Positions 2,032 through 13,589 of a stretch of 64,000 nt of DNA are shown here, piece after piece; position 1 is the stretch's first letter, and each line of letters begins with the position of its first letter. The stretch covers positions 8,345-72,344 of the forward strand of contig CAYMHI010000001.1 of assembly GCA_964390265.1 (NCBI GenBank), written 5' to 3'. Position numbers and translations under genes: made by a program. Below the pieces are notes generated by a model. The model had not been told where the DNA came from. It saw only the letters and a list, made by a program, of their open reading frames with translations, and did no database searches. The DNA comes from an uncultured Candidatus Saccharibacteria bacterium. Its GTDB lineage: Bacteria; Patescibacteriota; Saccharimonadia; CAILAD01; BJGX01.

Positions 2032-3549
2032 ATGCAGATAGGAGTGTTACTTGCTGTTATTGTTGGAGCGGGGGCTTTGGGTTACGTATCTAATGTGGTT
2101 TTGACCAAGCAAAAAAGCGCCGAGGGAAAGGCCAAGGCCGACAAAATACTAGATGATGCCAAAGTTAAAGCGAAAGAAGATTTGTTGAAGGCTAAAGAAG
2201 AGGCACTAAAGATACAAACCGAGGCCAAAGAAGAAGAGAAGCAACGTCGCAATAGACTTGATGAGCAAGATAGGCGCGTAAGTGATAGAGAAAAATTACT
2301 AGATAGTAAACTAGAAACTTTAGAACGTCGCGCCGATGCAATGAAAAATGATGAAAAAGAAATTGAAGCTATTAAACAAGAGTTGCGAGATATACGTGCA
2401 AGACAAGTTGAGAATTTAGAGAAAATCGCTAAATTAAAGAAAAAAGAGGCCACTGAAAAATTAATGGCAATGACCGAAAAAGATATTAAGGCTGACTTGG
2501 TAGAATATATTGAAAAGCTCAAACGAGACGCAACTGAGAATGCCGACGAAGACGCTAAAGAAATTATGGCCGCCGCTATGGAGCGCATGGCTAGTAGTCA
2601 GGCTACAGAGCGTACTATTACTACTGTACCTATTACTAGCGACGAGGTAAAAGGCAGAATAATTGGCAAAGAAGGCCGTAACATTCAAACTTTTGAACGC
2701 CTAACTGGGGTAGATGTACTAATTGACGAAAGCCCTGGCGTAATTGTGCTTTCTGGCTTTGATCCTGTGCGCCGGCAAGTGGCGCGCGTTGCAATGGAAC
2801 AGCTAGTAAAAGACGGTCGTATTCACCCCGGTCGCATAGAAGAGTTGGTAGGTAAAGCTCAAAAAGAAATTGACCAAGACGTAAAAAAAGCTGGTGAAGA
2901 TGCTGCAAGAGAAGCCAAAGTGGTTGGTTTGCCACCAGAGATAAACAAACTTATGGGTCAGCTAAAATTTCGTACCAGTTTTTCTCAGAATGTACTGCAT
3001 CACTCCATAGAGATGGCACACTTGGCCGCTATGATTGCCGAAGAGATTGGAGCAGATGTTAAAATCAGCCGTACCGCCGCCTACCTGCACGATCTCGGCA
3101 AAGCCGTCAGCCACGAGATAGAAGGCAAGCATCACCACATTACCGGCGACATTATGCGCAAGGCTGGTTTTGATGAGGCTACTGTGCATGCGGCCGAGGC
3201 TCATCACGATGATATTGAAGCCACTACTCCAGAGGCTCTAATTGTGCGAGCTGTAGATGCACTAAGCGCTGGTCGGCCAGGTGCACGTGGTGATACTGCC
3301 GAGAATTTTGGCAAACGTATGACCGACTTAGAAAACGTTACCAAGGCTTTTCCTGGTGTAGAAAAAGTCTATGCTATGAGTGCCGGGCGTGAGATACGAG
3401 TATTTGTAAGTCCCGAAAACGTTGATGATCTTAGTGCTATTAAGTTGGCTCGTGATGTTGCCACCAAGATAGAGGCTACGCTAAAATATCCAGGTACCAT
3501 TAAGGTAAATGTAATTCGCGAAACCCGCGCTGTGGAGTTTGCTAAATAG
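2032..3549 (+). CDS. rny: Ribonuclease Y
   Basis: N-terminal TM helix, a long coiled coil, a KH domain (GKEGRNIQ) and an HD domain (HSIEMAHLAAMIAEE...LHDLGK). AGGAG RBS upstream. Confidence 0.9.
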   Translation: MQIGVLLAVIVGAGALGYVSNVVLTKQKSAEGKAKADKILDDAKVKAKEDLLKAKEEALKIQTEAKEEEKQRRNRLDEQDRRVSDREKLLDSKLETLERRADAMKNDEKEIEAIKQELRDIRARQVENLEKIAKLKKKEATEKLMAMTEKDIKADLVEYIEKLKRDATENADEDAKEIMAAAMERMASSQATERTITTVPITSDEVKGRIIGKEGRNIQTFERLTGVDVLIDESPGVIVLSGFDPVRRQVARVAMEQLVKDGRIHPGRIEELVGKAQKEIDQDVKKAGEDAAREAKVVGLPPEINKLMGQLKFRTSFSQNVLHHSIEMAHLAAMIAEEIGADVKISRTAAYLHDLGKAVSHEIEGKHHHITGDIMRKAGFDEATVHAAEAHHDDIEATTPEALIVRAVDALSAGRPGARGDTAENFGKRMTDLENVTKAFPGVEKVYAMSAGREIRVFVSPENVDDLSAIKLARDVATKIEATLKYPGTIKVNVIRETRAVEFAK

Positions 3550-3564
3550 TATGAAGGAACAAAA

Positions 3565-3837
3565 ATGACACATAGAGAATTAATTGAAGAACTAGCCGAT
3601 AGCGCCAATATTACTAAGCGTCAAGCCGAACGTACGCTTAATAAAATGAGTATGATAATTATGAGCGAAGTGAAGCACGGCCAAAAGGTTAATATTAATG
3701 GCTTTGGTACGTTTTACCTCGGCAAGCGAGCTGCTCGAGCCGGCATCAACCCTATGACAGGTGATAAAATTGATATTCCCAAAGTAATGATACCCAAGTT
3801 TAGATCTGGTAGTAGATTTAAAAAGATGGTTCGTTAA
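3565..3837 (+). CDS. hup: HU/IHF-family DNA-binding protein
   Basis: 90-aa protein with FGTF...RAARAGINPMTGDKIDIP, the HU arm motif. Confidence 0.85.
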   Translation: MTHRELIEELADSANITKRQAERTLNKMSMIIMSEVKHGQKVNINGFGTFYLGKRAARAGINPMTGDKIDIPKVMIPKFRSGSRFKKMVR

Positions 3838-3870
3838 ATATAGCAGCAAACTGGTTGTGGTGCGTCAAAA

Positions 3871-5145
3871 TTGAGTATAATAGCAAACATGAATACCTAC
3901 GTAGCCGATGAAAAAATAATTGATCAACTTACCAAGTTGCCCAAAGTAAGACTTACAATATTTCGTGATATTGAGATAAGCCAACAAGGGTTTGTACTAT
4001 TAAAGCTTTCCAAAAGAATACGCTCAAGCATCGTAGAAGATCTTGATAACGACGAGCTTATTGCGCTGCTAAACTATCTAGACCCCGACAAAGCTACCGA
4101 TATTATTCAAGAGCTCAAGCCCCATAGAGCCAAGAAAATCACCTCAGAGCTATCTGATACTGTTCGTGATAAGGTAGAGACTTTGCTGAGTTTTAACCCT
4201 CGTACTGCTGCCGGCCTAATGAATCTTGACTACGTAGAGATTGCGCCAAATATGCATTTTGAAGATGTATCGGCCAATATTATTGAGCACGAAAAACGAA
4301 CCGGCAAGTTCCCTTCAATACTAGTGGTAGACAACGGTAAATTGTTGGGTGAACTACCCGGGCACGAGCTGGCTTTGCATAGCGGCAAAGAAAAGGTAGA
4401 GAACTATATCAAAAGAGTACCGTCGGTGCACTTTGATAATGATGAACACAAGGTTGTGAACTCGTTTATAAAACACCCACACAATAAGGTGGTTGTACTT
4501 GCCGAAGACGAAAGTATTTTGGGCGTAATTCATTCTGACGACTTGCTAAATTTAATAGATAAACGAACAGCCAACGATCTATATGGTTTTGCTGGGGTAA
4601 ATAAAGAAGAGGATGCATTAGATGGGGTTGGTACCAAGGTGCGCAATAGATATCTTTGGCTAATGATAAACCTTGGTACGGCATTTTTAGCCGCCTCGGT
4701 TGTGGGTATGTATGAAGGTACTATCGCCAAGCTTACCTTGCTAGCTGTATATATGCCCATTGTAGCCGGTATGGGTGGTAATGCTGCTACTCAAACCTTG
4801 GCGGTTGCCGTACGTGGGTTGGTACTCAAAGAAATAGACTTGCGTCACGGTCTTAATTTTGCTGCTCGCGAGTTGGGCGCTGGTATTATAAACGGTATTA
4901 TCAACGGCGCCATCGTGGCACTGGTGGCAATAGTTATAAATAAAAACCCCATGCTAGGGTTGGTCTTAGCACTAGCTATGATTGGCAATCTAGTAATAGC
5001 CTCGGTATCTGGCGCAATTGTTCCGCTAATTATGAAAGCATTTGGCAAAGACCCAGCTACATCGGCAACAGTATTTATTACCACCTGCACCGATGTGGGC
5101 GGATTTTTTATATTCTTGAGTCTAGCGCAACTAATGCTAGTCTAG
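3871..5145 (+). CDS. mgtE: Magnesium transporter MgtE
   Basis: MgtE N-domain, a CBS pair and a C-terminal five-TM domain with the PIVAGMGGNAATQTLAV motif. The true start may be ATG at 3889. Confidence 0.85.
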   Translation: MSIIANMNTYVADEKIIDQLTKLPKVRLTIFRDIEISQQGFVLLKLSKRIRSSIVEDLDNDELIALLNYLDPDKATDIIQELKPHRAKKITSELSDTVRDKVETLLSFNPRTAAGLMNLDYVEIAPNMHFEDVSANIIEHEKRTGKFPSILVVDNGKLLGELPGHELALHSGKEKVENYIKRVPSVHFDNDEHKVVNSFIKHPHNKVVVLAEDESILGVIHSDDLLNLIDKRTANDLYGFAGVNKEEDALDGVGTKVRNRYLWLMINLGTAFLAASVVGMYEGTIAKLTLLAVYMPIVAGMGGNAATQTLAVAVRGLVLKEIDLRHGLNFAARELGAGIINGIINGAIVALVAIVINKNPMLGLVLALAMIGNLVIASVSGAIVPLIMKAFGKDPATSATVFITTCTDVGGFFIFLSLAQLMLV

Positions 5146-5251
5146 TTGGTTTGGTAGGTTGCTAGTAAAAATAATGATAGACAACAGTTAAATGCGCTTA
5201 TGATATAATCATTAGCATATATAACAACTACTAATAGGTACCAAAATAATT

Positions 5252-6574
5252 ATGAACGAAACAAGTGAAGAAAAAGTAGAAAAAGTAGCAGCAACCCCAG
5301 AGCTGAACGCTGCCGAAAAAGAAGTTGTAAAGTTTCTAGATGCCAGAATAGACGCAGAGCCAGAGAAAATGCGCAAATTAATGACCGAGAATTTTCAGGC
5401 TAACTATGATTTTTCAGTTTTAGACCCTCAAAAGCCTCAAAAAACTCAGCCGGTTTCATTTAGAATTATTAGAACTAGTAAAGAGGCCGGTAGTTTTTCG
5501 GTCACTGCTGAGATATTAAATGAAAATCAAAAGAGTCATAAACAAAAAACCATTAGCAAGATATATGATCTTACGAAAGACGCGGACTCCAAACAGCTCT
5601 TAATTAACTCCGAGAAAAACCTCAAATCAGATGTACCGTTTTATAAAAAACCTGTTTTCTGGATAGCCACAGTTATGGGATTGGCTGCTATTGCCGGGCT
5701 AGTATTTTGGGCTATAACCAGTCAAAAAACTACTCAAAATCAACAGTCTATTAAGGCCAACTGGCACCAAGTAGTAGATGGTGCAAAAGGGGTTGATGAT
5801 GCCGCGGCCAACGCTACTAAAGACCAGGCTGGTTATGACAATTACACCAAAAAGCTTAGCGACTACAAAAGCCTGGTTGGCGATGTTAAGTTTAGGGCCG
5901 ATCAACTCAAGCCTACTAGCGCCGACAAAGAAGACATTGCCAATTACAAAAATGCGCTTGTTAACTTAAATGATTATATATCGGAGGCGTCTAATCAAAG
6001 TAAGAATGTTGCTAGCCTTACTACTGCCGATTCATCTAAGCTAGATGATCTAGCTAATACGGCTGAGGCCGCTACCAATAAATTTCAAGATGGCGCTAAA
6101 TATCTAAGCGACAAAATGCCCACAGATATTTTTAACATTGGTGATGTACTGGCAAAGCAAAAAGATAAGCTCGATCAAGATAAACAGAAGGTGCAAGAAG
6201 CCCAAAACGCCGCCGCCGATGTGGTCGCCAAAGATGCTGCCAACAAAACCACAGTTACGAACAATATAACAACTTTTGAGCAAGGCTACATAGCCGGCAA
6301 TGAATCTGTAATGCGCCCAGTTATGACAGCTGGATTCCAAGGAGAATATAACTTCAACCAATTAACTCCCGAGCAACGTCAATATCAATACCCTAGCAGC
6401 TTTAGAATAATTAATGTTACTAAACAAGCCGATGGAACATACAAAGCTCAAGTAAATGTATTGTATAAATACACTGACAACCCCAACCAATATACCCAGG
6501 GTTATGAATACAGCGTAATTGGTCAAAATAATAAGTGGCTAATTAATAACGAAAAAACTGTTAGCGAATTTTAA
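5252..6574 (+). CDS. Hypothetical membrane-anchored protein
   Basis: Long ORF with one central TM helix and coiled-coil and low-complexity regions. No recognisable motif. Confidence 0.5.
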   Translation: MNETSEEKVEKVAATPELNAAEKEVVKFLDARIDAEPEKMRKLMTENFQANYDFSVLDPQKPQKTQPVSFRIIRTSKEAGSFSVTAEILNENQKSHKQKTISKIYDLTKDADSKQLLINSEKNLKSDVPFYKKPVFWIATVMGLAAIAGLVFWAITSQKTTQNQQSIKANWHQVVDGAKGVDDAAANATKDQAGYDNYTKKLSDYKSLVGDVKFRADQLKPTSADKEDIANYKNALVNLNDYISEASNQSKNVASLTTADSSKLDDLANTAEAATNKFQDGAKYLSDKMPTDIFNIGDVLAKQKDKLDQDKQKVQEAQNAAADVVAKDAANKTTVTNNITTFEQGYIAGNESVMRPVMTAGFQGEYNFNQLTPEQRQYQYPSSFRIINVTKQADGTYKAQVNVLYKYTDNPNQYTQGYEYSVIGQNNKWLINNEKTVSEF

Positions 6575-6593
6575 TATAAACAAGGAGATAATA

Positions 6594-6851
6594 ATGAGAC
6601 CACAGAATGAGCTCGTACCTGAAGACACTAGCGATGAAAAGTCGGTAGCCTACAGTAGGCTAGAAGAGGCCCTTGGCACTAGCTTGAAAGCATTTCAAAA
6701 AGTACGCGATGAAGTTATTGCATCGGGAGCCATGACTTCTGAGGAGGTAGATGATGCAAGGGCAAGTATAGTTGGCCATACTAAAGAAGAACGCCAAGCA
6801 GAGATTAGGGAGTGGATGAAAGCTGATTACGACGAGCAAATAGATCAATAG
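6594..6851 (+). CDS. Small acidic hypothetical protein
   Basis: ORF with AGGAG RBS (caaggagataataATG). Confidence 0.45.
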   Translation: MRPQNELVPEDTSDEKSVAYSRLEEALGTSLKAFQKVRDEVIASGAMTSEEVDDARASIVGHTKEERQAEIREWMKADYDEQIDQ

Positions 6852-6911
6852 AATAGTATAAAAAACTGTTAGCGAGTTTTCAACAAAACCTTAGCCGAAT
6901 TAGTAACTATA

Positions 6912-7151
6912 TTAAACCCCAGTAAAGTAGCTAGCTGGACTAAAAGCTATAAATGAAAGTAAATATAGTACTAAAAATAAAGAAATAACCATCGCAACCA
7001 CAGTGATAGTTATAGCCCTAGTTGAACTTTGTCTATCTTTAAGTAGCAACTTACTACAAATCAAAAATACTATTATAGGCACAAAAATTATCAAAACAGA
7101 TGTGACTATTAAATTGGAGATAATGGCATTATGCCAGCCTACATTATCCAT
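6912..7151 (-). CDS. Possible small two-TM membrane protein
   Basis: ORF with two hydrophobic helices. No clear RBS. Confidence 0.25.
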   Translation of the reverse strand: MDNVGWHNAIISNLIVTSVLIIFVPIIVFLICSKLLLKDRQSSTRAITITVVAMVISLFLVLYLLSFIAFSPASYFTGV

Positions 7152-7836: not shown

Positions 7837-7890
7837 TATACAATACTTTGACGATGGGGCGGTGTTCTACGCTAAAGCTACGATACAACT

Positions 7891-7950
7891 TCCAGATTAA
7901 ACTTCACTCATGCATTCTTAATTTGAATAATTAAGCGTAGCGTGAGTGAA
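7891..7950. terminator. Strong hairpin with a stem of about 16 bp, immediately 3' of tRNA-Gly on the minus strand
   Basis: ttaaacttcactcatgc ... gcgtgagtgaagtttaa inverted repeat. Confidence 0.5.
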
Positions 7951-7956
7951 GTTTAA

Positions 7957-8031
7957 TGGAGCGGGTAGCGGGAATCAAACCCGCATCACCTGCTTGGAAG
8001 GCAGGAGTAATAATCATTATACGATACCCGC
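7957..8031 (-). tRNA. tRNA-Gly (TCC)
   Basis: Minus strand sequence GCGGGTATCG...CCTGCCTTCCAAGCAGG...CCCGCTCCA. Anticodon UCC. Confidence 0.85.
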
Positions 8032-8787: not shown

Positions 8788-8864
8788 GCGCCCTTAGCTC
8801 AGCTGGATAGAGCGTCTGGCTTCGGACCAGAAGGCCGGGGGTTCGAATCCCTCAGGGCGCACCA
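8788..8864 (+). tRNA. tRNA-Arg (TCG)
   Basis: GCGCCCTTAGCTCAGCTGGATAGAGCGTCTGGCTTCGGACCAGA...GGGCGCACCA. Anticodon UCG. Confidence 0.85.
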
Positions 8865-8917
8865 TATAATTGAGTCTTGGCTAAAAGCCAATGACACAAT
8901 TATAAAGTATGATTTGA

Positions 8918-8998
8918 TGAGAGACCCAGGGTTCGGTGCAGTAAAGCGCGCAGTGTCAAAACAAATTAATTTGGTTTTGACCAAGCACTTTACCTTAA
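8918..8998 (+). ncRNA. Conserved element of about 80 nt, copy A. Candidate structured RNA or miniature inserted element.
   Basis: It is paralogous to 10735-10815. It shares the gatga.aga...ggttcggtg...gcgcag...CAAAAC-hairpin-GTTTTG...agcac pattern. Confidence 0.35.
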
Positions 8999-9012
8999 GA
9001 GGCGTAGCCGCT

Positions 9013-9030
9013 ATCCCTCAGGGCGCACCA
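9013..9030 (+). repeat. 18-nt direct repeat of the tRNA-Arg(TCG) 3' end (atccctcagggcgcacca). It looks like an att-like target duplication.
   Basis: Exact copy of positions 8847-8864, located 148 bp downstream. Confidence 0.7.
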
Positions 9031-9212: not shown

Positions 9213-9288
9213 GGGTCTGTAGCTCAATTGGCAGAGCAGTTGCCTCTTAAGCAATTGGTTGTGGGTTCGAGTCCCACCGGACCCACCA
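9213..9288 (+). tRNA. tRNA-Lys (CTT)
   Basis: GGGTCTGTAGCTCAATTGGCAGAGCAGTTGCCTCTTAAGCAAT...GGACCCACCA. Anticodon CUU. Confidence 0.8.
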
Positions 9289-9374: not shown

Positions 9375-10421
9375 CTATAAGTCGCCGGTACGACTAAAAA
9401 AGTGTTTCCATCTTGAGTCTGGAATAGGAGTAACGCTTGGGGAGTGCAAGAGGTTATGGCCCTCCAGAAGATACTCGATTATTGCCATGAGTATTGGCAC
9501 GCTATAGCCAGACTGTGCAAAGTGCTTAGCTCGCCTGTCATTGTCTATCTCTGGCATTAGATCATTACTTCGAGGTAATGGGTGCATAAGTATTGCATTG
9601 GGGCTCAACATTCGCATCACACTCTCATCGATGAAATAAGCAGACCCACCAGCTCCCACCCAGTAGAATACATCAGTGTCTAGAACCATCGAGTCGAGAT
9701 TGGTCGTTTCTTTGAATTCAATATCACTCAAATACAAATTCTCTCGCAACTCATCATCTATACGTGCACTTTCAAGTGATACAAATATGAAGCTGATATT
9801 TTCGAAGAGACACAATGCTAGAGCAAGGTTTCGCGCAGTTATATTGCGACGAAGATCGCCACCAATCACCACGCGCAAATTCTGTAGTCTACCCACTTCT
9901 CGATAGATAGTATAGAGATCTACTAGCGTTTGCAATGGGTCATCTGCTATATTGATCATTGCGGCACTACTATGGTGAGCCGAGAGCTCTAACTCTTTAC
10001 TTGGCGGCTGATTGACCGCAATAATGTGAGGCTTGTACTCACTCAGTGACTTTAGTAAATCAGATAAACTTTCATCTCCAGCGCTATCCACATCTATAAT
10101 ACTTATTCCCATTCTTTTGGCAGCGGTAAAGAGAGATGTTTGTGATCGAGGAGACGGGCAGTCTAGCAACGTGTAGAGTAAGTAGTCTCTATAAAGACTG
10201 GCACTGACTTGAGGGTTTGGTACGCGAAGTCCATAACCCAACTGCTGTACGTATATATCTACAGCGGCAAAAAGATCTAACAAGAATTGTTTGCTCAGCT
10301 GAGAGGTGCTTAGTATGTGACGTAGTTTGGTTGATTTCTTTTGCAAAGGAACAAACCTTTCAATATGTTTGGTCGAAAGAAGTTCGTTTGATATAGTAGG
10401 CCAACAGGTAGCAAAAGTCAA
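9375..10421 (-). CDS. Aspartate/ornithine carbamoyltransferase-like protein with a degenerate N-terminal carbamoyl-phosphate motif
   Basis: The C-terminal MHPLPRSNDLMPEIDND...F.QSG motif is a near-perfect match to the ATCase HPLPRVDEI...F.Q..G motif. The N-terminal STRTR motif is replaced by SPRSQT, and HPTQ is not recognisable. Confidence 0.6.
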   Translation of the reverse strand: MTFATCWPTISNELLSTKHIERFVPLQKKSTKLRHILSTSQLSKQFLLDLFAAVDIYVQQLGYGLRVPNPQVSASLYRDYLLYTLLDCPSPRSQTSLFTAAKRMGISIIDVDSAGDESLSDLLKSLSEYKPHIIAVNQPPSKELELSAHHSSAAMINIADDPLQTLVDLYTIYREVGRLQNLRVVIGGDLRRNITARNLALALCLFENISFIFVSLESARIDDELRENLYLSDIEFKETTNLDSMVLDTDVFYWVGAGGSAYFIDESVMRMLSPNAILMHPLPRSNDLMPEIDNDRRAKHFAQSGYSVPILMAIIEYLLEGHNLLHSPSVTPIPDSRWKHFFSRTGDL

Positions 10422-10616: not shown

Positions 10617-10693
10617 CGGGGTGTGGCGCAGTTGGCTAGCGCGCTTGGTTTGGGACCAAGAGGTCGAAGGTTCGAGTCCTTTCACCCCGACCA
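10617..10693 (+). tRNA. tRNA-Pro (TGG)
   Basis: CGGGGTGTGGCGCAGTTGGCTAGCGCGCTTGGTTTGGGACCAAG...CACCCCGACCA. Anticodon UGG. Confidence 0.85.
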
Positions 10694-10735
10694 AACTAAA
10701 ACACCCAACTTTTGTTGGGTGTTTTAGTTTGTATT
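10694..10735 (+). terminator. Perfect 17-bp hairpin 3' of tRNA-Pro
   Basis: aaactaaaacacccaac tttt gttgggtgttttagttt. Confidence 0.6.
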
Positions 10736-10815
10736 TGATGAAAGACGAGAAACCCGAGGTTCGGTGAACGAGGAGCGCAGACCAAAACCAAACCTGTTTA
10801 GGTTTTGAGCGAGCA
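10735..10815 (+). ncRNA. Conserved element of about 80 nt, copy B (paralog of 8918-8998)
   Basis: Alignable with copy A and contains the same CAAAACC...GGTTTTG hairpin. Confidence 0.35.
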
Positions 10816-10895
10816 CCACAGGCAGAAGGCGCCAGCCGTTGTCCTGGCGCTTTAGTAGACTTATGCTACAATTATTAGCATAAGTAATTTTACAA

Positions 10896-13589
10896 ATGGC
10901 AAACAAAAAAGACATTTTAATTAACTCACTACTTACTTTAGGTATACTTGTTGGCTTATTGGCGATTTATGCTGGTTTTAAGATGCACCCAGCTCAGCCA
11001 GCTCATGCCGCAACAACATACACAGTTACCAACGGTAATAATGCTGGTGCTGGTTCGTTGCGCCAAGCGATCACCGATGCCAATGCTAATCCTGGCGCTG
11101 ATATTATTGTTTTTAATGGAGCCCTTGTTATCCAGCCCACTAGCTCATTACCATCAATTACCGACCCGGTAGAAATAAATGGCTACACCGGCTCGCCCGG
11201 CGGTGCCACAGCCAACTCTGCAGCCAGCCCCAACCCATTCAATGGCACACTCACCGTTGAGCTCGATGGTCAGTTGGCGGCTGGTAGCGTACTTGGTTTA
11301 GGTTTTGAATCAGGCTCAGAGGGTTCATCGGTACGTGGGCTGGTGATTTATAATTTTTCTTTTAATGCTATTCAAGTAGCTCCTGGTTTTACTGGTAGCG
11401 GCCTAACCATAGCCGGTAACTACATTGGCACCAATGCAGCCGGTACTGTCGGCCAGGGCACTACGCTTAGCTCTGGCATTGGCCTGTTTGGTACCGGCGC
11501 ATCAAACATTACAGTCGGTGGCACAAACCCAGCAGATAGGAACATAATCTCTGGCAATGCTGGGGGGATTGGAGGCGGGGCAAACAGCAATGCTACCATA
11601 CAGGGCAATTATATTGGCTTAGCTGCCGATGGGACTACTGCCTTAGCAAATGCGGGTGGTGGCATTGTTTTTTATGCCGATACTACCAATGCAACCATTG
11701 GGGGCGCCACTACCTCGGCAGCTAATGTAATATCTGGCAATACATCGGGCTATGGCATATCTATTACGACTGCCGATGTCAACCACAATACTATAGCCGG
11801 TAACTTCATTGGCACTGATTACACAGGCGCTGTTGCCCGTGGTAATGCCAATGGCGGTATATTTATTGGCAGTGGTTCTGCATCTAATACTGTTGGTGGT
11901 ACTACGACCGGCGCTCGAAACCTTATCTCTGGCAATTCTAGTGCGGGTATATTTATTAATAGCGGAGGTACAAGCAACACCGTAGAAGGCAACTACATTG
12001 GTACCGATATAACTGGTGCTACAGCCCTAGCAAATGGCACAGGGGTAAGTATTTTAGGTGGGTCTAGTGGCAACACTATTGGCGGGGCAGATACCACTAC
12101 ACGCAATATTATTTCCGGTAACGGTGGTATGGGTTTGAGTATAGACACAAGTAATAGCAACACAGTAGCAAGTAACTACATTGGTGTTGATGTAACTGGT
12201 ACGGCTGACTTAGGTAATGGCGGTATTGGTGTAGCTATAAATAACTCAGCAAGTAGTAACACTATTGGCGGTACCACTGCTAGTGAACGCAACGTTATTT
12301 CTGGAAACGCAGATAATGGAGTGTACATATCTGGCACTGGCACAAATAATACAATCCTAGGTAATTATCTTGGTACCAATGCGAGTGGCTCAGCCGCAAT
12401 ACCCAATGATCAAAATGGCTTGTTTTATTTGGCAACAGGTACTGGCAATGTTCTGGGTGGACTTGCTGAAGGGTCTAGAAATATTCTTTCGGGTAATTCC
12501 AATTTTGGGGTGATATGTAGTAGTGGTGCCAACTTGAGTATTCAAGGAAATTATGTGGGGTTGAGTGCTGATGGCGCTACAACAATACCCAATGTTGGTG
12601 CTGGTAACAGTGCTAACATTGCTTTGACAGGATGTTCAAACATGATTATCGGTGGTTCTGCTACTGGTGCACGCAATGTTATATCTGGCAGCCTAGGGGC
12701 TGGGATATTAATGATTGCTGGCGGGAATAATACGGTGCAAGGTAACTACATTGGTACCAAAACTAGCGGTGAAGTCCAAAGTGGGTTTGGTAATAGTACC
12801 GCTGGTATTATTATAGCTTCTGCTTCTACGAATAACTTAATAGGCGGTGTAAATAGTGGTGAAGGCAACATAATAGCCGGTAATGGCGCAGGTGTTGCAG
12901 TTGGTGATATAGGAGGTATATTCTTAGCACAAAATAACTCTATCTTAGGCAATAGTATTCATGACAATAGCAGTGGTCCCCTGAGTAGCTTAGGAATAGA
13001 TTTACTGGGTAACACAAATGATTTCGTTACGTGGTCTTCCATTGGCGTTACCCCCAACGATGCTGGTGACCCCGACGTTACCTCTAATGTACTCATGAAC
13101 TTCCCAGTCATTCAATCAGTTACTTCTACCAATGGACAAGCCACAATAACGTATGACTTAGATATCAACGATGCCGAGCCTGGCGCTACTGGCTACCGCG
13201 TAGAGTTCTTTGCCAACGACTCTGCTGACCCCAGTGGTCATGGCCAAGGCCAAACCTACTTGGGAAGCGACACCGTTGCTGGTGATGTGAATGGTAGAAG
13301 CGCCACTCTTACGCTCCCAGCTGGCGTGGATGGTTCTAAATATGTTTCTGCCACCACTACCATGACCGATGCTAGTGATGATGGTTTTGGCCACACCTCT
13401 GAGTTTGCTGCTGACGTACAAGCTACTCTAGTGCCGGTATCTCCAACACCAACCCCAAGTCCAGCTGCCAATGTGTTGGCCACTACGGGCCTTAATCAAA
13501 ATAGAAGTAAATTAATTCTCGCAGCTATCGCACTGGTATTACTGGGTGGTACTGGGCTATACGTTGCTCGCCGTCAAAAACGAACTTAG
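10896..13589 (+). CDS. Large surface protein with right-handed parallel beta-helix repeats and a C-terminal LAxTG sortase sorting signal
   Basis: N-terminal signal/TM. Dozens of Gly/Asn/Thr-rich repeats with N.ISGN motifs. PT-rich linker (VSPTPTPSP). LATTG, a hydrophobic stretch and an RRQKRT tail. Confidence 0.8.
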   Translation: MANKKDILINSLLTLGILVGLLAIYAGFKMHPAQPAHAATTYTVTNGNNAGAGSLRQAITDANANPGADIIVFNGALVIQPTSSLPSITDPVEINGYTGSPGGATANSAASPNPFNGTLTVELDGQLAAGSVLGLGFESGSEGSSVRGLVIYNFSFNAIQVAPGFTGSGLTIAGNYIGTNAAGTVGQGTTLSSGIGLFGTGASNITVGGTNPADRNIISGNAGGIGGGANSNATIQGNYIGLAADGTTALANAGGGIVFYADTTNATIGGATTSAANVISGNTSGYGISITTADVNHNTIAGNFIGTDYTGAVARGNANGGIFIGSGSASNTVGGTTTGARNLISGNSSAGIFINSGGTSNTVEGNYIGTDITGATALANGTGVSILGGSSGNTIGGADTTTRNIISGNGGMGLSIDTSNSNTVASNYIGVDVTGTADLGNGGIGVAINNSASSNTIGGTTASERNVISGNADNGVYISGTGTNNTILGNYLGTNASGSAAIPNDQNGLFYLATGTGNVLGGLAEGSRNILSGNSNFGVICSSGANLSIQGNYVGLSADGATTIPNVGAGNSANIALTGCSNMIIGGSATGARNVISGSLGAGILMIAGGNNTVQGNYIGTKTSGEVQSGFGNSTAGIIIASASTNNLIGGVNSGEGNIIAGNGAGVAVGDIGGIFLAQNNSILGNSIHDNSSGPLSSLGIDLLGNTNDFVTWSSIGVTPNDAGDPDVTSNVLMNFPVIQSVTSTNGQATITYDLDINDAEPGATGYRVEFFANDSADPSGHGQGQTYLGSDTVAGDVNGRSATLTLPAGVDGSKYVSATTTMTDASDDGFGHTSEFAADVQATLVPVSPTPTPSPAANVLATTGLNQNRSKLILAAIALVLLGGTGLYVARRQKRT

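Follow-up and report, generated by a model that had tools for sequence, protein, structure and literature searches.

The tRNA cluster and its two elements

The window, by which we mean the whole 64-kb stretch of DNA analyzed here from an uncultured Saccharibacteria bacterium, contains six tRNA genes within a span of 4 kb. A first-pass annotation had described two paralogous elements of about 80 nt in this region, at 8918-8998 (copy A) and 10731-10815 (copy B), each downstream of a tRNA gene. Both copies were found there, copy A starting 54 nt past tRNA-Arg(TCG) and copy B 38 nt past tRNA-Pro(TGG) (Table 1). Their homology was assessed by a single-sequence nhmmer search of the 64-kb window, in which the query was the orthologue of copy B (denoted B′) from a related genome, L002. 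Copy A was recovered at E = 5.2e-6, and the similarity between A and B is thus not due to chance. The blocky pattern of conservation that had been noted was borne out: a 23-nt block at 83% identity and a 19-nt block at 84% identity lie at a common offset of 1828 nt, and the order and spacing of the shared blocks are alike in the two copies. The homology reaches ≈9012 in A and 10842 in B, past the ends originally assigned, and two features had been overlooked. The block CCC..GGTTCG corresponds to the 5′ half of a tRNA T-stem followed by the start of the T-loop, and an exact 18-nt repeat of the 3′ end of tRNA-Arg lies behind copy A. No third copy was detected in the 64-kb window by pattern searches, nhmmer or a covariance model. 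(A near-match at 2097, with one mismatch, is located inside the RNase Y coding region and is a chance match.) Protein coding was rejected, since the sole ORFs, of 48 aa over A (+) and 63 aa over B (-), are on different strands, and the two copies differ by a 7-nt indel.

Table 1. Features of the two elements and their tRNA genes in the window, and copies of the module in other Saccharibacteria assemblies.
Feature	Sequence	Position	Strand	Remarks
tRNA-Arg(TCG)	window	8788-8864	+	ARAGORN and Rfam; target gene of element A
Left direct repeat ATCCCTCAGGGCGCACCA	window	8847-8864	+	exact 18-nt repeat
Mini-element A, 166 nt	window	8865-9030	+	absent from relative L002
Left-end long hairpin of A	window	8865-8904	+	-16.9 kcal/mol; directly after tRNA CCA
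Conserved upstream block GATGAGAGACC, with T-stem 5′ mimic CAGGG and TTCG	window	8916-8935	+	
77-nt insert of copy A	window	8936-9012	+	J1, P3, internal loop, P4, J2, P5
P3 of copy A	window	8945-8949 with 8985-8989	+	
P4 hairpin of copy A	window	8953-8962 with 8974-8982	+	
P5 hairpin of copy A	window	8998-9003 with 9007-9012	+	
Right direct repeat ATCCCTCAGGGCGCACCA	window	9013-9030	+	exact copy of tRNA-Arg 3′ end, identical to 8847-8864
tRNA-Lys	window	9213-9288	+	ARAGORN and Rfam
tRNA-Pro(TGG)	window	10617-10693	+	ARAGORN and Rfam; target gene of element B
Left-end hairpin of B	window	10692-10731	+	18-bp stem, then T run
Module B	window	10744-10842	+	upstream block, T-stem 5′ mimic, insert
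T-stem 5′ mimic CGAGG and TTCG of module B	window	10755-10763	+	
77-nt insert of module B	window	10764-10840	+	
Remodelled right end of element B	window	10826-10853	+	
Copy-B orthologue	L002			at tRNA-Pro
Copy	L026			after tRNA-Pro; right repeat lost
Copy	L058			at tRNA-Asp
Copy	L098			after tRNA-Ser(GCT); 18-nt repeat
Copy	L107			after tRNA-Asp; insert 93 nt, rearranged
Two copies	L126			after tRNA-Asp; 17-18-nt repeat present three times
Copies	L138			after tRNA-Pro and tRNA-Lys; 18-19-nt repeats with 1-2 mismatches

The left repeat of element A comprises tRNA positions 59-76, that is, the end of the T-loop, the 3′ half of the T-stem, the 3′ strand of the acceptor stem and the CCA. Because the block at 8865-9030 is bounded by exact 18-nt repeats, it looks like an insertion that duplicated the tRNA end. 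The relative L002 (ENA ERZ27258478), whose ATCase is 90% identical to that of the window and whose gene order is alike, lacks exactly this 166-nt block: its tRNA-Arg CCA runs straight into a trailer that aligns without gaps (131/150 positions) to the window from 9031 onwards. This precise presence/absence difference, with a gapless empty site in L002, confirms that element A is an insertion. With its perfect repeats and perfect helices, copy A looks intact, and it represents a recent gain or loss relative to L002. The hairpin that opens the element occupies the slot that in other elements is filled by a hairpin of an A-tract, a GC stem and a T-tract, resembling a two-way terminator. The internal loop of the insert is GCA/AA in this copy, and 9013-9030 together with 8927-8935 make up the split T-arm mimic of element A.

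In the window, copy B is a fossil in decay, and its right repeat is gone. The left-end hairpin is terminator-like, as judged from its long stem and T run, and two mismatches in P4 are a sign of decay. At the right end, GTCCT alone is left of the tRNA-Pro end repeat, and AAGGCGCCAG..CTGGCGCTTT forms a terminator-like hairpin. The L002 orthologue keeps the full repeat GTCCTTTCACCCCGACCAA and is a 164-nt unit with 19-nt repeats of the tRNA-Pro end on either side; it is separated from the tRNA-Pro gene by an inserted 4.4-kb element that encodes a large serine recombinase. The three layouts at tRNA-Pro, in the window, L026 and L002, could have arisen by differential loss and accretion.

Between tRNA-Lys and tRNA-Pro, the minus strand of the window (9375-10421) carries an aspartate/ornithine carbamoyltransferase-like gene, for which 5.8 billion proteins yielded just 13 homologues at E ≤ 1e-10, mostly ≈30% identical. 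On the contig of a distant ATCase homologue, L003, a SNF2-family helicase gene (2098-5517, +) is interrupted by an intein with a LAGLIDADG endonuclease domain and is adjoined by a T4-type RNA ligase gene. At 10896-13589 (+), the window encodes an 897-aa secreted or anchored protein with a DNA repeat period of ≈189-195 nt, and a DUF5652 gene and a sortase gene are located downstream. This protein has 914 aa in L002 and is absent in L136 and L138.

Copies in other Saccharibacteria and the module they share

Further copies were sought by pattern scans of collections of species-representative genomes and metagenomes, followed by nhmmer and covariance model searches of the fetched sequences. The search for additional copies that the first-pass annotation had proposed yielded at least nine, in seven other Saccharibacteria assemblies, all of them after or at tRNA genes (Table 1). 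The matches listed from the genome-collection scan were mostly chance matches from GC-rich genomes, the true copies among them came from Saccharibacteria records only, and the copy counts are lower bounds. L138 was reached via HisRS homologues. It had also been asked whether copies always follow tRNA genes: in 275 kb of related DNA, all 11 matches to the covariance model adjoin a tRNA gene and none is dispersed, a count to be read with the fact that the scan patterns required GGTTCGG, so that copies away from tRNA genes could escape. Five tRNA species serve as targets (Arg, Pro, Asp, Ser and Lys), and the tRNAs beside the 11 copies are intact and score normally. The six repeat-bounded units measure 166, 164, 170, 172, 166 and 162 nt.

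The most elaborate arrangement is that of L126, in which the tRNA-Asp gene is followed by a 170-nt mini unit, a repeat, a 3157-nt cargo island and another repeat. At the far end of the island there is a second, diverged module, which immediately precedes the third copy of the tRNA end. The island has four ORFs, one of which scores as NUDIX (Pfam), and the rest have no recognised function; no recombinase was found among the four, and the GC content of the island does not differ from that of its flanks.

In two more distant relatives, L144 and L145, the Arg-Lys-Pro cluster is compact, with neither modules nor tRNA-end repeats, and judging from this comparison the compact arrangement is likely to be the ancestral state. 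When five related genomes are compared site by site, the window alone has an element at Arg and L138 alone has one at Lys. Four of the genomes have one at Pro, and the module subtypes there differ: L138 has an A-like module at tRNA-Pro, whereas in the window this subtype is at tRNA-Arg. Decay is visible in both L138 copies, as in window copy B, the signs among the three being a mismatched P4 and a lost or mutated right repeat. In the same genome, a GNAT acetyltransferase gene (6515-6958, +) lies between tRNA-Arg(TCG) and tRNA-Lys, where the gap in relatives is 14-183 nt; no flanking tRNA-end repeat is visible by eye.

The copy in L058 has a layout unlike the others. Here, tRNA-Asp positions 1-57 are present as a complete copy, the module sequence starts within its T-loop, and this tRNA-Asp copy with its insert is located upstream of the intact tRNA-Asp gene. 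When the 81-nt insert was deleted from the sequence, ARAGORN called a tRNA-Asp, with a weakened acceptor stem and no CCA. Past the intact tRNA-Asp gene of L058, by 29 nt, there is also a 13-nt copy of the tRNA-Asp 3′ end, GTCGAGCCCGCCA (3280-3250, -), which marks a very short remnant, bounded by repeats, at this hot spot. L107 contains a second 3′ fragment of tRNA-Asp, GAGATCGCCGGTTCG...ATCCGGTC...GTCGGGCCCGCCA (≈1560-1415, -), in which a different insert, of 59 nt, occupies the same position in the T-loop. By eye, this insert has interleaved complementary segments (GGACT/AGTCC and GCTTGCA/TGCAAGC), and the fragment has an extra 28-nt hairpin between the 3′ half of the T-stem and the acceptor strand. 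More than one family of T-loop inserts may therefore exist.

The units have a common layout, consisting of a long hairpin directly after the CCA, a short spacer, a GA(A)ACC..GGTTC motif, which makes a small inverted repeat (P0) in most copies, and the module. Predicted energies of the left-end hairpins range from -16 to -27 kcal/mol across the units, and in most copies the A-tract, GC stem and T-tract have the form of a two-way intrinsic terminator. In every copy, the module comprises the 5′ half of a T-stem with TTCG, the insert, one or two T-loop bases and the tRNA 3′ end, with the insert splitting the T-loop mimic after G57. The cassette closes with 17-19 nt that exactly reproduce tRNA positions 59-76, and direct repeats of the tRNA end therefore lie on both of its sides. 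The 5′ half of the T-stem tracks the target tRNA, being GGG at Arg and Ser, AGG at Pro and CGG at Asp. In the split T-stem, covariation with the target tRNA is seen at the inner three pairs; pair 12-125, for example, is AU in four cases, CG in three and GC in three.

The insert is 77-81 nt long, except in L107 (93 nt). Segmentation by hand of nine copies gave the order J1, P3, internal loop, P4, J2 and P5. P3 has 5 bp around a conserved A.A mismatch, and in the nine-copy segmentation the internal loop has GCA on its 5′ side and GA on its 3′ side. P4 has 8-12 bp in a hairpin of 28-32 nt, and P5 has 5-7 bp. The junctions and the internal loop have conserved nucleotides (TTCGGYG, AGCGCA and GAGCAY), while the helices vary in sequence and keep their pairing. 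P3 has undergone two independent G-C to A-T double changes. The stem CAAAAC/GTTTTG, correctly recognized in the first-pass annotation as a kept outer stem around a variable enclosed part, makes up P4 in most copies and is replaced in the second module of L126 by AAAGCAAATG/CATTTGCTTT. P5 occurs as GGC/GCC, GGTGGC/GCCACC, GCAAGC/GCTTGC and TCCGCC/GGCGGA, all of which pair. Cognate arms scored 18.9 (P4) and 10.7 (P5), compared to 10.1 and 4.2 for non-cognate arms, and no non-cognate arm pair reached the cognate mean.

The consensus fold was evaluated in an alignment of 11 copies, which are few and related and were fitted to the covariance model itself; in this alignment, 84.5% of cells have standard pairs (shuffled mean 73.0%), 14 pairs are changed on both sides (shuffled mean 6.8) and the covariation score is 0.299 (shuffled mean 0.123), none of which was reached by any of 500 shuffles. 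When the partners were slid by 1-3 columns, 30-51% of cells paired. The helices thus covary in the consensus-folding check that had been suggested for them, and the compensatory changes across divergent copies point to selection on the hairpins. Folded as single sequences, the 80-nt spans first described were unimpressive (z = -0.45 and +0.22), and the structure of the module emerged only from comparison of the copies.

Probable miniature integrative cassettes and alternative readings

The copies probably represent the conserved end-module of miniature, gene-less integrative cassettes of 162-172 nt, which enter the 3′ ends of tRNA genes in Saccharibacteria and are moved by a recombinase acting in trans. 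The terminal sequence of a miniature tRNA-targeting element had been among the candidates put forward originally, and it is the one favored by the tRNA-end repeats, the 166-nt indel, the units of similar size at five tRNAs and the tandem arrays. The repetition of one architecture at five tRNAs argues for a discrete unit rather than random decay, and the comparison between genomes suggests that the cassettes are mobile. Integration could start from a circular form carrying a copy of the tRNA end, which would recombine with the tRNA gene inside the 18-nt segment of identity. This would restore the tRNA and leave the module and the displaced tRNA end at the far side. The catalyst would be a site-specific recombinase supplied in trans, either a tyrosine integrase or a large serine recombinase. 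The structured module may have a role in attachment, presumably as an arm of the attachment site that acts at the DNA level, possibly as folded single strands like those of integron attC. The L058 layout could reflect a crossover 5′ of the insert, on its other side, which takes an extra assumption.

A more far-reaching version of the cassette model, which we think doubtful, is that the attachment site is defined by structure, as folded single-stranded DNA or via RNA, and that its two flanks, the T-stem 5′ half and tRNA positions 59-76, as copies taken from the target, program which tRNA 3′ end the gene-less 165-nt cassette enters. If the flanks do set the target, this would offer a simple route to retargeting, by which the cassettes could switch targets through swapped T-arm flanks; the whole would then amount to an integron-like cassette system on the tRNA genes of CPR bacteria, with its recombinase encoded elsewhere.

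No recombinase gene was found in the elements, including the 3.16-kb island, and neither a motif scan nor tblastn detected a tyrosine or serine recombinase in the 64-kb window. The sole tyrosine recombinase seen is a XerC/D-like protein in L058, encoded outside any island. No autonomous parent element carrying the module was found in viral, phage and plasmid collections: pattern scans of IMG/VR gave chance matches in coding regions only, and BLAST searches against GenBank phages and PLSDB plasmids returned nothing. Large serine recombinases are encoded in L002 (8053-9717, +, with tRNA-Pro at 9660-9736, -) and in L136 (2359-4215, -, with tRNA-Pro at 2340-2416, +). The two proteins, of 554 and 618 aa, are 34% identical and belong to different elements inserted at precisely the same tRNA-Pro junction; the L002 element is the one that was sized, at ≈4.4 kb. 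Both ORFs cross the junction, their last 18 codons being the antisense strand of the tRNA, so that integrated and excised forms would encode different C-termini. The two recombinases are candidate enzymes for the cassettes; the elements that carry them are themselves without the module.

The original view that the elements look like structured RNA rather than protein stands as far as protein coding is concerned; that they must be RNA does not follow, as the two strands fold alike (mean z of -2.7 for the tRNA-sense (+) strand and -2.8 for the antisense (-) strand in seven independent copies). It is rather unlikely, in our estimate, that the module is a structured non-coding RNA, either an sRNA in the tRNA trailer or a mimic of the tRNA 3′ end involved in processing, regulation or as a decoy, for which the tRNA-end repeats would be part of the function and not scars of recombination. 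A functional RNA would also show the covariation of P3, P4 and P5; the conserved loop nucleotides, the fold on the tRNA-sense strand (z from -1.4 to -3.6) and the position of the module downstream of the tRNA on the same strand fit as well. However, the antisense strand folds equally well, and of the 171 helix pairs 167 are Watson-Crick and only four are G-T (G-U in RNA). Furthermore, the module sits between the left-end hairpin and the original terminator of the tRNA trailer, so that in nearly every copy a strong terminator-like hairpin parts it from the tRNA and another one comes after it; in the 3.16-kb island, a further terminator precedes the module. No sigma-70-like promoter scores upstream of either window copy. 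Rfam gave no match on the modules at gathering thresholds (hammerhead and other small ribozymes, group I intron, tmRNA and sRNAs), nor at E up to 10 in the window and up to 0.1 at five related loci, and the first-pass annotation had been right to dismiss a hammerhead. An RNA function would also leave unexplained the clean indel, the uniform repeat-bounded unit and the presence of a module at the far end of the 3.16-kb island. Folding of both strands, the near absence of pairs other than Watson-Crick, the flanking terminator-like hairpins and the promoter result all favor a role in DNA, and a recombination-site arm, perhaps in folded single strands, is the interpretation that we favor for the module.

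If the units were inert scars, that is, the leftover attL and attR arms of larger decayed islands, immobile and with a functionless module, this would account for the lack of a recombinase in cis and for the state of window copy B and of both L138 copies; CIME-type decay with subsequent accretion has been documented as a way in which tandem arrays arise (PMC5704250). We consider this improbable, since independent decay at five tRNA genes would not yield one architecture of 162-172 nt each time, the compensatory changes in the helices imply selection, and copy A, with its perfect repeats and helices, is a recent gain or loss by comparison with L002. Still less probable is that the 77-81-nt insert alone is the mobile unit, a single-strand miniature transposon of the IS200/IS605 type (PATE) that entered 3′ of TTCG in the T-loop and whose subterminal hairpins are recognised as single-stranded DNA. 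The insert does always follow TTCG, with no target duplication; its hairpins covary with almost exclusively Watson-Crick pairs and fold on both strands; in L058, it sits inside an otherwise complete tRNA-Asp copy, and in L107 a different insert was found at that position. Against this, homology between copies at different tRNAs reaches ≈25 nt upstream of TTCG, the copies in the 275 kb searched are never dispersed, no TnpA/TnpB-like gene was seen, and the 18-nt tRNA-end repeats would remain unexplained. An intron in the T-loop of a tRNA gene or pseudogene, or a simple local duplication, can hardly be credited. Patescibacteria are rich in tRNA introns (PMC13011429), and the L058 copy is called as a tRNA-Asp once its insert is removed. 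Yet the known introns are group I introns in the anticodon loop (PMC13011429), for which the insert is too small, and no intron or ribozyme family matched. Removal of the insert in silico gave no tRNA for A and B′, which lack the acceptor 5′ strand, the D arm and the anticodon arm and are therefore not tRNA genes. Local duplication, the fallback named in the first-pass annotation in case neither further copies nor covariation came to light, is excluded by the copies at other tRNAs in seven other assemblies.

Relation to known integrative systems

Among known systems, the closest are islands that integrate at tRNA genes and those of their derivatives that lack an integrase (CIMEs), including tandem accretion, and the cassettes are an unusually small variant of the tRNA-targeting genomic island. 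A CIME retains attL and attR and has lost its genes for integration and transfer (PMC5704250); the mini units likewise have repeats at both ends and no genes, and the function of these sites is putative. Islands and cassettes have in common the site at the tRNA 3′ end, direct repeats of 17-19 nt, restoration of the tRNA, presence or absence among relatives, and arrays that share a repeat (L126 and L002). In contrast to tRNA islands, which have their own integrase, the mini units are gene-less; the cassettes also differ in their size of only 162-172 nt, in having one architecture at five tRNA species and a covarying module in a split T-arm, and in that neither a parent nor an integrase was found for them.

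Integron attC cassettes are the nearest functional analogy. In both cases the candidate site is defined more by structure than by sequence, and empty and cargo-bearing units alike end in a module, arranged head-to-tail beside a fixed anchor. Here, however, the anchor is a tRNA 3′ end instead of attI, there is no IntI or other tyrosine recombinase nearby, and the cassettes share a repeat of 18 nt. While attC is one long imperfect palindrome with R and L boxes (R''-L''/L'-R'), the module consists of two local hairpins within a T-arm mimic.

The ssrA islands of Dehalococcoides reportedly use a serine recombinase and form tandem arrays at the 3′ end of the tmRNA gene, with short repeats between the islands. 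These ssrA-specific genomic islands integrate at the 3′ end of a small-RNA gene (PMC3146451). The large-serine-recombinase elements at the tRNA-Pro junction in L002 and L136 are comparable; the mini units differ in that they have no recombinase, and the serine-recombinase elements found here lack the module. With MITEs and PATEs, the cassettes share their small and uniform size, the lack of genes, the presence of several copies per lineage and, presumably, movement in trans. Unlike these, they lack terminal inverted repeats, with a hairpin at one end and a copy of the tRNA end at the other, and make no short target duplication; they are found strictly at tRNA ends, and their repeat consists of 17-19 nt of the tRNA. 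The self-splicing group I introns of Patescibacteria interrupt functional tRNAs at position 35/36 (PMC13011429). They occur in the same phylum and likewise interrupt a tRNA-like sequence, whereas the insert described here has 77-81 nt and is located in the T-loop of a non-functional tRNA 3′ fragment.

A literature search for integrative elements at tRNA genes in Saccharibacteria or CPR bacteria returned nothing specific, and the mobile DNA of these bacteria is poorly charted. Our results indicate that the tRNA 3′ ends in these tiny genomes are active hot spots of gain and loss: mini units, a 3-kb island and two serine-recombinase elements distinguish relatives from one another within a single small tRNA cluster. 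A unit of ≈165 nt that is essentially an attachment site alone, but retains covarying structure and occurs at five tRNA species, would rank among the smallest integrative elements described. In practical terms, copies of tRNA ends and mimics of T-arms can mislead the annotation of both tRNAs and islands.

A separate observation was made in the serine-recombinase element of L002, which contains a full-length match to the Rfam LOOT RNA (RF03000; 81 bits, E = 8e-14) at 7863-7978 (-), between a TM2-domain gene and the recombinase gene.
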